Translations under genes and position numbers: made by a program
The notes under the pieces: model-generated
What the model was told of the DNA's origin: nothing
What the model saw: the letters and a program-made list of their open reading frames with translations, nothing else
Database searches by the model: none
From: Shigella phage Sf24
Sequence record: MF327008
DNA length: 64,000 bases
Reading direction: 5' to 3' (one strand)
Shown here: piece after piece, positions 6,571 through 7,910 of the stretch
Layout: the number at the start of each line of letters is the position of its first letter
Position numbering within the stretch: the stretch's first letter is position 1

Positions 6571-7350
6571 TTAATTAAAAATATATACTTCATCAGTTCC
6601 ATTCTTTTCTTTGGAATGATATATGTTAAAGACGTATTTTTTATTAAGATGCTTAACATTATATTTTTTAGACCATTCTTTAAGAAGAGTGTTTTCCTTT
6701 CCGTGATGCTCTAAAACATTCGACAGTCCAAATTTTATTCCTCTGTCATTTAAAGAATCTAAAAGATTTAAAAGGTCTTTTTCTTCTTCTTCTGACCAAA
6801 ATTTATTATAATCAGCAACTGTTATAAGATATGGAGGGTCCACATATACAAAATCGCCATCTAGAATTTTGACATCTTTAAAATGCAATGAACTAAAGAT
6901 TATTTTATCACAATTTTGTTTAAAGTGATTAAAGCGTTTTTCACTATTTTTGTTTATAGTTCTTTTTCCAAACGGAGTAGTAAAATTTCCTTTATCGTTT
7001 ATACGAATCATATTACTAAACCCGTGAAAATGAAGAACATAAAGTAAAAGAGGATCTCTAGTTTTATTATAATCTTCACGTAATTTCAAAAACTCTTCTT
7101 TTGATGTTTTTGATAGTTTATATTGCTTTATTACTTTTAATACGTCATCCCATGATACATTAATAAGACGCTTATACATTTCAATAATTGGTTCTTGAAT
7201 ATCATTGGCCAATACAGGACCATTGACGTTCAAAGACACTGATAAACCTCCACAAAATAAATCCACGAATCTGTCATATTTTGGAAAATGAGGCTTAAGT
7301 TCAGGTAATAATGACTGTTTATTACCTGTATACGCGATAGCTCCTAGCAT
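6571..7350 (-). CDS. dam: DNA N6-adenine methyltransferase Dam
   Basis: 259 aa; FCGG SAM-binding motif and DPPY catalytic motif; matches T4 Dam as recalled. Confidence 0.92.
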
Positions 7351-7910
7351 TATATTCTCTCATTTATTGCAGCAAAAAACGAATTATATAATTCTTCATC
7401 ATATGTATTTGATAGTAATACTAACACGTTTTGTGATTTAGCATATTCATTAAACCTTGCTTGGATAGTTGGATTATTAGTAAATGATTCTCTTTTTGTC
7501 CATTTATTACGTGGATAATATCCGCATGGCAAAAAATCTAATATCATCAATGACACAGGGTTTTCAGTTTTTGTGTATTCTTTTAATTTCTCTTTATCTT
7601 CTAAATATATTCCAACCGAATCAATAGCTGTACCTCCACCAACTTGGTGTTTGATTTCAATTATATGCTTTTTACCGTTGCGAGAAATAACAATATCAAA
7701 TCTTCTAGTACGCTTCTTAGTTATAAAATTAGAGCAAAACAAATTATTTGATTTTTCAGTATCATCAATTAAAACCATTTTTTCTTGATAACTAACTGAA
7801 CAATCAGTGAAATATTCTTTTACTTTATTAAGTATGAAATTTTCAACTACGGCAGATATTTTATATGAATCTCCGTTTAAAGCCATTTCATGCACAATTT
7901 TATTAATCAT
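7350..7910 (-). CDS. hypothetical protein with PD-(D/E)xK-like D...EIK motif, translationally coupled to dam
   Basis: Track ORF 7350-8012; start moved to ATG 7908-7910 with GAGGA SD because an early promoter lies at 7936-7965; stop TAA overlaps dam ATG (TAATG); [19 protein letters not shown]. Confidence 0.6.

Follow-up and report, generated by a model that had tools for sequence, protein, structure and literature searches.

The stretch of DNA described here is 64,000 nucleotides of the Shigella phage Sf24 genome (sequence record MF327008; hereafter "the window"), in which the dam methyltransferase gene is directly preceded by an open reading frame (ORF) of 186 amino acids (aa). We are highly confident of two points taken together, the nuclease fold predicted for the ORF product and the linkage of its gene to dam. 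The complete mechanism that we favor, with moderate confidence, is that nuclease and coupled Dam constitute a compact, mobile, phage-borne cassette of the Type II restriction-modification (R-M) kind. Dam of T2 and T4 is the classic "orphan" methyltransferase of phages, and its enzymology and structure have been well studied. What Dam does for phages whose DNA is already protected by glucosylated hydroxymethylcytosine (glucosyl-hmC) has, to our knowledge, never been explained clearly. In T2 and most other tequatroviruses with Dam, as well as in several further genera, dam is preceded by a gene for a restriction-endonuclease-fold protein whose active site is intact, the two genes making up one cassette with dam in second place. 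Phage Dam thereby gains a testable origin and rationale, namely as the modification half of an R-M or competition module. Modules of the Type II R-M-like kind are already known; what is new is a narrow nuclease family of phages only, and among these of T4-like phages only.

The ORF and its linkage to dam

The two genes and their junction are located as follows:

7350..7910, minus strand: nuclease-like ORF, 186 aa, stop codon included in the coordinates; candidate R subunit, PD-(D/E)xK restriction-endonuclease-like
6571..7350, minus strand: dam, D12-class N6-adenine (GATC) DNA methyltransferase with its ATG at 7350-7348; candidate M subunit
7348..7352, minus strand: TAATG stop/start overlap, in which the ORF stop and the dam ATG share one base; putative translational coupling junction

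The ORF begins with the ATG at 7910 and ends with the TAA at 7352-7350. A preliminary description of the locus, made from the sequence alone, had placed the ORF directly 5' of dam with a TAATG overlap, and so it is; all of these features are on the minus strand. The dam product matches Pfam PF02086 with an E-value of 6.5e-51 and is 100% identical to T2 Dam. The GATC specificity of T4 Dam is established, and as the window protein is 98% identical to it, the same specificity can be expected here.

The ORF is a real gene under purifying selection rather than a chance reading frame, because its dN/dS against six relatives is 0.10-0.29 (Nei-Gojobori method; 0.03-0.10 for dam in the same comparisons) and orthologs exist at 35-99% identity. 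By tblastn the protein was found in 162 phage records, near full length in 153 of them and mostly at 95-99% identity. The protein family is very narrow, since searches of 5.8 billion proteins and 1.84 billion cluster representatives yielded no more than about ten clusters, at identities between approximately 35% and 98%. No bacterial or archaeal relatives were found in one genome per species from 185,579 species, searched with the family pattern and a degenerate DNA pattern for KHQxxxGTAID; 15 bacterial loci with the pattern were rejected, all of them being chance matches in a scan with the family hidden Markov model. Three of the 18 metagenomic matches were real (L038, L042, L048), all phage-like and adjoining Dam. 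The family is confined to T4-like phages. A metagenomic protein of 765 aa (P0018), highly repetitive and weakly similar, in seven places, to the last 45 residues of the family proteins, was left out; it is probably a translated tandem repeat or an assembly artifact and no true relative.

The linkage to dam is the strongest line of evidence. It was counted over loci whose contig extends far enough for the next gene to be read. In all of these a gene for a Dam-family methyltransferase lies directly 3' of the ORF, also where ORF identity has dropped to approximately 35%, and no homolog without dam directly downstream was found among them. The start of dam relative to the ORF stop ranges from a 35-nt overlap to direct abutment, the exception being T2 with a 13-nt gap that results from a frameshift. 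At least eight lineages and three genome neighborhoods of T4-like phages are covered, the neighborhoods being genes 61-56, denB-ndd (KPV15) and the position immediately upstream of rIIA (L004). The lineages, with the identity of the ORF product to that of the window, are:

Window, T2, GEP001 and JK08: Tequatrovirus, 97-100%
MX01: Dhakavirus, 64%
L009: metagenome, 63%
L005-L008: metagenome, 55%
L011: metagenome, 49%
KPV15: Jiaodavirus, 44%
L042: metagenome, 44%
L004: metagenome, 36%
L010: metagenome, 35%

The ORF product and Dam co-diverge, as judged from identities to the window that drop together (63/71, 55/72, 49/64, 44/62, 44/60, 35/54 and 36/52% for ORF/Dam, by lineage). As in Type II R-M systems, a candidate endonuclease gene adjoins a methyltransferase gene and is inherited together with it.

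Fold and active site

The residues that matter most for the nuclease assignment lie in one short stretch:

7617..7700, minus strand: conserved catalytic core, residues 71-98; D72, E85, K87 and HQ..GTAIDS without variation among full-length members; alignable with RFDxVI...IExN..GGS, the core of DpnII-type enzymes

The AlphaFold2 model of the protein, based on an alignment of 11 sequences, is confident (mean pLDDT 90.5, pTM 0.86) and has the alpha-beta-beta-beta-alpha-beta core fold of the PD-(D/E)xK superfamily. In the model D72 is found in strand 67-77 and E85-I-K87 in the adjacent strand 80-88, that is, the D...(D/E)-x-K arrangement occupies the second and third core strands, and it is conserved in the family. 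No full-length member departs from D72, E85 and K87, from the helix residue E23 or from the HQxxxGTAIDS block, and for the three catalytic residues this extends to P0015 and P0016, which have approximately 35% identity. The preliminary description had quoted residues 71-89 as a D...E-x-K arrangement reminiscent of PD-(D/E)xK nucleases and had proposed structure prediction as a check; the likeness is borne out by the fold obtained and by the position and invariance of these residues.

The closest structural matches are orthodox Type IIP restriction endonucleases, and the whole catalytic domain is structurally close to the MunI/EcoRI-like enzymes of this type. The Foldseek TM-scores against MunI/EcoRI-type enzymes are modest, approximately 0.4. 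A comparison that covered sequence homology and the GNAxER recognition motif of these enzymes brought out only a short resemblance (E-x-K-H-Q-G and G-x-A-I-(E/D)), which could be due to chance. HMMER searches of PDB chains, whether the query was the protein or the family profile, returned noise and no sequence match. The MunI/EcoRI-type enzymes are PD-(D/E)xK homodimers that produce 4-nt 5' overhangs; their recognition sequence is likely not the same as that of the ORF protein. As for the GATC endonucleases of the MutH/Sau3AI type, no specific structural or sequence similarity to MutH was seen, and a MutH-like nicking enzyme was ranked low for this reason. No GIY-YIG or HNH domain was matched in Pfam, PHROG or NCBIfam, and the NCBIfam scan returned nothing meaningful.

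Possible relation to DpnII-type restriction enzymes

Enzymes of the DpnII/MboI group recognize GATC, are blocked by N6-methyladenine (m6A) and are paired with a Dam-family methylase (DpnM). The ORF product of the window has sub-threshold Pfam matches to three restriction-enzyme families: DpnII, BanI and HSDR_N. With the Pfam DpnII profile (PF04556) it scores 15.7 bits, and its relatives P0009, P0003 and P0002 score 22.5 (the best), 19.0 and 17.7 bits, the cut-off of 23 not being reached by any of them. The profile was matched by 6 of the 11 members scanned separately, always at profile positions of approximately 143-235 out of 278, and P0015, P0016, P0011 and P0006 had no match to it at E ≤ 0.1. 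The PADLOC model PDLC03548 for a Type II restriction endonuclease matches 5 of the 11 members (best E 5.3e-6); that this model is of DpnII type was confirmed with a genuine DpnII protein, which scores 420 bits. PDLC03569, a short DpnII-related PADLOC model of 205 aa, matches one member.

The ORF family was also compared by hhalign with an alignment of DpnII made from database proteins. The E-value was 5.8e-4 with a probability of 29.3% over 80 columns, and the register pairs E23, RFD72, IE85 and GG(T) of the ORF with E152, RFD201, IE214 and GG(S) of DpnII. The DpnII sequence used as bait, and for that only, scores 335.7 bits in Pfam and is 99% identical to a database cluster (P0019).

In several respects the pair is like DpnII/MboI systems: the partner is a D12-class methylase of the Dam family acting on GATC, the core blocks line up (helix E, RFD-h-VI, h-IE-h-(K/N) and GG(S/T)), and near-threshold matches recur in two independent libraries. 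In other respects it is different. The protein has 186 aa as opposed to approximately 288 aa, the canonical E-x-K takes the place of the E-x-N of DpnII, the R gene precedes the M gene with overlapping codons, and the carriers are virulent phages with hydroxymethylcytosine (hmC) in their DNA instead of bacteria. Judging from these comparisons, the protein would act in the manner of a Type II restriction endonuclease, and it plausibly derives from the DpnII/MboI lineage. Membership in the DpnII/MboI family as such is unproven, the scores staying below the Pfam threshold and the full-length architecture of approximately 280 aa being absent.

A proposed phage-borne R-M-type cassette

In the R-M explanation the ORF-dam pair would be transcribed early from its own promoter and would be translationally coupled. 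The ORF protein would belong with the Type II restriction enzymes, as a small PD-(D/E)xK endonuclease that depends on Mg2+. It would probably act as a homodimer, as MunI and the other Type IIP enzymes do, and would cut GATC lacking m6A by means of a metal site formed by D72, E85 and K87. Dam would methylate the GATC sites of the phage's own DNA and in this way protect it, leaving as targets any DNA in the infected cell that is methylated incompletely or not at all, e.g., that of co-infecting phages or of relatives without the cassette. The nuclease probably recognizes GATC and is probably inhibited when the site is methylated; we infer these two properties as well as nuclease activity, dimerization and the biological target. 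It had been suggested beforehand that the pair is either an R-M or a methylation-guided nuclease module. The first half of this suggestion is supported by the co-inheritance with Dam, the fold and the invariant triad, and the methylation-guided variant ranks low, for the reasons given below. Should the protein prove active, it may offer a compact enzyme for GATC with tolerance for modified cytosines, which would be of use as a reagent.

A precedent for a virus-encoded GATC R-M pair is CviAI of chlorovirus PBCV-1 (M.CviAI with A579L; PMC7248222). This lytic virus likewise combines an m6A methylase for GATC with an endonuclease, and both are early products (PMC7248222). The difference lies in the hosts: that of PBCV-1 is eukaryotic, its GATC sites are unmethylated and its DNA is the obvious target, whereas the hosts of the ORF-carrying phages are Dam-positive. 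The DNA of T-even phages does carry m6A, at 0.4% of adenines (PMC7653180).

A number of observations weigh against the R-M explanation. Every DpnII-type match is below its curated threshold, the hhalign probability is only 29%, and the protein has nothing that corresponds to the first 140 or so residues of DpnII. Host DNA would already be shielded from a methyl-sensitive GATC enzyme, since the known hosts (E. coli, Shigella, Klebsiella and Yersinia) are Dam-positive. Of the commercial Type II enzymes, approximately 94% fail on phage DNA with glucosyl-hmC (PMC7653180); with most Type II enzymes thus blocked in vitro, it is unproven that the phage needs Dam for self-protection. Unusually for an R-M system, R comes before M and no control element is to be seen. 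Finally, loss or damage of the gene is common (the deletion in T4, the C-terminal frameshift in T2 and split matches in a few phages), and the ORF is therefore dispensable.

Presence and absence in T4, T2 and RB18

The 56-dam-61 region of the window is 99.7% identical to that of Shigella phage Sf25 and approximately 98% identical to that of T2, and the window thus represents a T2-like Tequatrovirus. Tequatroviruses are found in three states, with ORF and dam, with dam only, or with neither. According to rough counts, 531 records match the flanking genes, approximately 180 have Dam at an identity of at least 90% and approximately 150 have the ORF. Roughly, then, most Dam-positive tequatroviruses carry the pair, T4 is exceptional, and about two-thirds have neither gene. 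Two segments of the window describe the differences:

6531..7990, minus strand: optional cassette (promoter, ORF, dam and 3' spacer), approximate extent; missing as one block in RB18-type tequatroviruses
7430..7968, minus strand: segment missing in T4, 539 nt with the promoter and codons 1 to approximately 158; flanked by the imperfect 8-bp direct repeats ATCATAAA and ATCACAAA

Comparison with the dam-61 interval of T4 and T2, which had been put forward as a further check, gave the following: T4 has dam only, with a 28-codon remnant, and T2 has the ORF in a frameshifted form. In T4 only 309 nt separate dam from gene 61, and the last 28 codons of the ORF are kept as a non-coding leader of dam. 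T4 has this same dam gene (98% identical), likewise located between genes 56 and 61, but upstream of it the promoter and approximately 158 codons from the start of the ORF are gone, whereas the partner gene of the window is intact. In T2 a 1-nt deletion in a T6 run (window positions 7370-7376, approximately) shifts the frame of the last seven codons, and the resulting ORF of 181 aa ends 13 nt before dam (L001 2865-3410). The same 1-nt deletion in the T-run is present in the T4 remnant (L003, approximately 3127-3210), which suggests that the T4 deletion arose on an already damaged, T2-like allele. RB18-type phages are without the whole block of approximately 1.46 kb (promoter, ORF, dam and spacer). 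By these alignments the T4 and RB18 states are deletions, and the "orphan" Dam of T4 looks like the survivor of a degraded cassette from which the nuclease gene has been deleted.

The GC content is 27.4% for the ORF and 28.6% for dam, in comparison to 34.4% for the window, 37% for gene 56 and 34% for gene 61. An AT-rich cassette fits an accessory or horizontally moving block. On the 3' side of gene 56, T4 has the SegF homing endonuclease (L003 1107-1781) and T2 two small hypothetical ORFs (L001 1093-1493), and the 56-dam-61 interval hence contains two independent presence/absence polymorphisms of nucleases between T2 and T4.

Alternative explanations

The bias against GATC in these genomes bears on two of the alternatives. 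GATC is by far the most under-represented 4-bp palindrome in the window, with 65 sites observed vs. 196 expected (observed/expected ratio 0.33; the next is TCGA at 0.67). In RB18, which is without the cassette (L054 1-50000), the ratio is 0.32. GATC depletion is a general trait of tequatroviruses, whether or not they have ORF and dam today, and it was dropped as specific support for a GATC nuclease, the depletion in RB18 being the same. For enterobacterial phages it has older explanations as well, namely host Dam and MutH.

The pair might be a selfish, homing-like cassette, in which the nuclease would cut co-infecting relatives that have no cassette, possibly at a site other than GATC, repair would copy ORF and dam, and Dam would provide immunity. 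This explanation is a variant that overlaps with the R-M one and puts gene drive and competition between phages before the restriction of foreign DNA; we regard it as possible although improbable. It agrees with the existence of a discrete 1.46-kb unit that is present or absent at one site in tequatroviruses and at different sites in other genera, as are the seg/mob cassettes of T4, and with the AT-richness of the cassette (27-29% vs. 34% GC for the window). The three-fold depletion of GATC even in RB18 would be expected if relatives face a GATC nuclease, yet the older explanations by host Dam and MutH exist for it. Seg and Mob of T4 are likewise optional nuclease cassettes between conserved T-even genes, and their presence varies among relatives. 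In contrast to the PD-(D/E)xK protein of the ORF, however, they are GIY-YIG or HNH enzymes and come without a methylase, and the ORF has no GIY-YIG/HNH signature, no match to homing-endonuclease families, and orthodox Type IIP restriction endonucleases as its top structural matches.

To a similarly low degree we entertain the idea that ORF and Dam form at once a weapon between phages and a gene-drive cassette, with a nuclease that would cut unmethylated GATC even in DNA containing hmC or glucosyl-hmC. Relatives without Dam that infect the same cell would then be destroyed or converted. If this were true, it would explain the retention of Dam in T-even phages, the hopping of the cassette, and the depletion of GATC with or without the cassette.

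Next come two explanations that we consider unlikely. In one the nuclease is unrelated to Dam in function and serves in host-DNA degradation, recombination/repair or anti-defense, the adjacency reflecting operon history only. Overlapping or abutting frames that persist down to approximately 35% identity and across three changes of genome position, the absence of any homolog lacking a downstream dam wherever the contig is long enough, and the joint loss of ORF and dam all argue against such independence. In the other, to which we give the same low rank, the protein is a catalytically dead relic or a DNA-binding regulator that has kept the nuclease fold, e.g., a modulator of Dam expression or targeting. 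The gene is indeed dispensable and often lost or truncated, and T2 itself has the C-terminal frameshift. The catalytic triad and E23, on the other hand, are invariant across the full-length members, dN/dS is 0.1-0.3, and inactive relics usually lose their acidic residues.

The least likely explanation is a DpnI-like, methylation-dependent (Type IIM/IV) nuclease that would cut G(m6A)TC in cytosine DNA marked by Dam and spare the phage by virtue of glucosyl-hmC: neither the methylase partner nor the PD-(D/E)xK fold conflicts with it, and hmC offers an independent self-mark on phage DNA (PMC7653180), but the hosts already methylate GATC and would make phage Dam redundant, the protein has a single domain without a winged helix or other methyl-reader domain such as that of DpnI (secondary structure and Pfam), its sequence affinity is to DpnII-type enzymes that methylation blocks, and T-even DNA itself has m6A at 0.4% of adenines (PMC7653180). 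What speaks against the last three explanations is that the synteny is strict, that the active site does not vary and that the affinities are of DpnII type.

Upstream signals, annotation and neighboring genes

Upstream of the ORF the following signals are seen:

7918..7922, minus strand: GAGGA ribosome-binding site of the ORF, read from the sequence, 8 nt 5' of the ATG
7936..7964, minus strand: promoter-like site of the sigma-70/T4-early type, TTTACT-17 nt-TATTAT with TG; consensus match only
8016..8041, minus strand: terminator-like hairpin and T-run between gene 61 and the cassette promoter

An early promoter of its own had been ascribed to the ORF in the preliminary description. A T4-early-like consensus match is indeed present at 7964-7936. 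In the scan promoter-like sites were fewer than in shuffled sequences (9 vs. 14.5), and the match therefore has no statistical weight beyond its agreement with the consensus. The placement of the hairpin suggests that the ORF-dam pair is a transcription unit of its own. A longer reading frame of 220 aa starting with TTG was rejected as the gene, because the homologs begin at the same Met; the ribosome-binding site and the promoter position also favor the ATG at 7910.

Within PHROGs the ORF falls into phrog_8706, "unknown function," and in GenBank records it is labeled hypothetical, except for two records in which an ortholog is called "head outer capsid protein" (AP018813.1, T2; OQ944321.1, GADU22), a label that looks like an annotation-transfer error. 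Dam is given as "FokI modification methylase" in several records. The 1988 entry for T2 dam, M22342.1 (L049), holds nearly the whole upstream ORF in bases 1-640, and only dam is annotated in it. No paper on the ORF was found in the literature by topic, accession or locus tag.

Between the cassette and gene 61 there is a hydrophobic ORF of 66 aa (MVQKLMAIVNAIKGNKKRIAFTISAMVGILLW...; window 8004-8204, plus strand), which has a strong AGGAGG ribosome-binding site and is arranged tail-to-tail with gene 61, overlapping its stop. It belongs to phrog_2024, is unannotated in the T4 RefSeq record and is labeled RB69ORF029w-like in RB18. The ORF is kept in T4, T2 and RB18 and in divergent metagenomic T4-like phages (L009 3783-3983 and L007 1214-1405).
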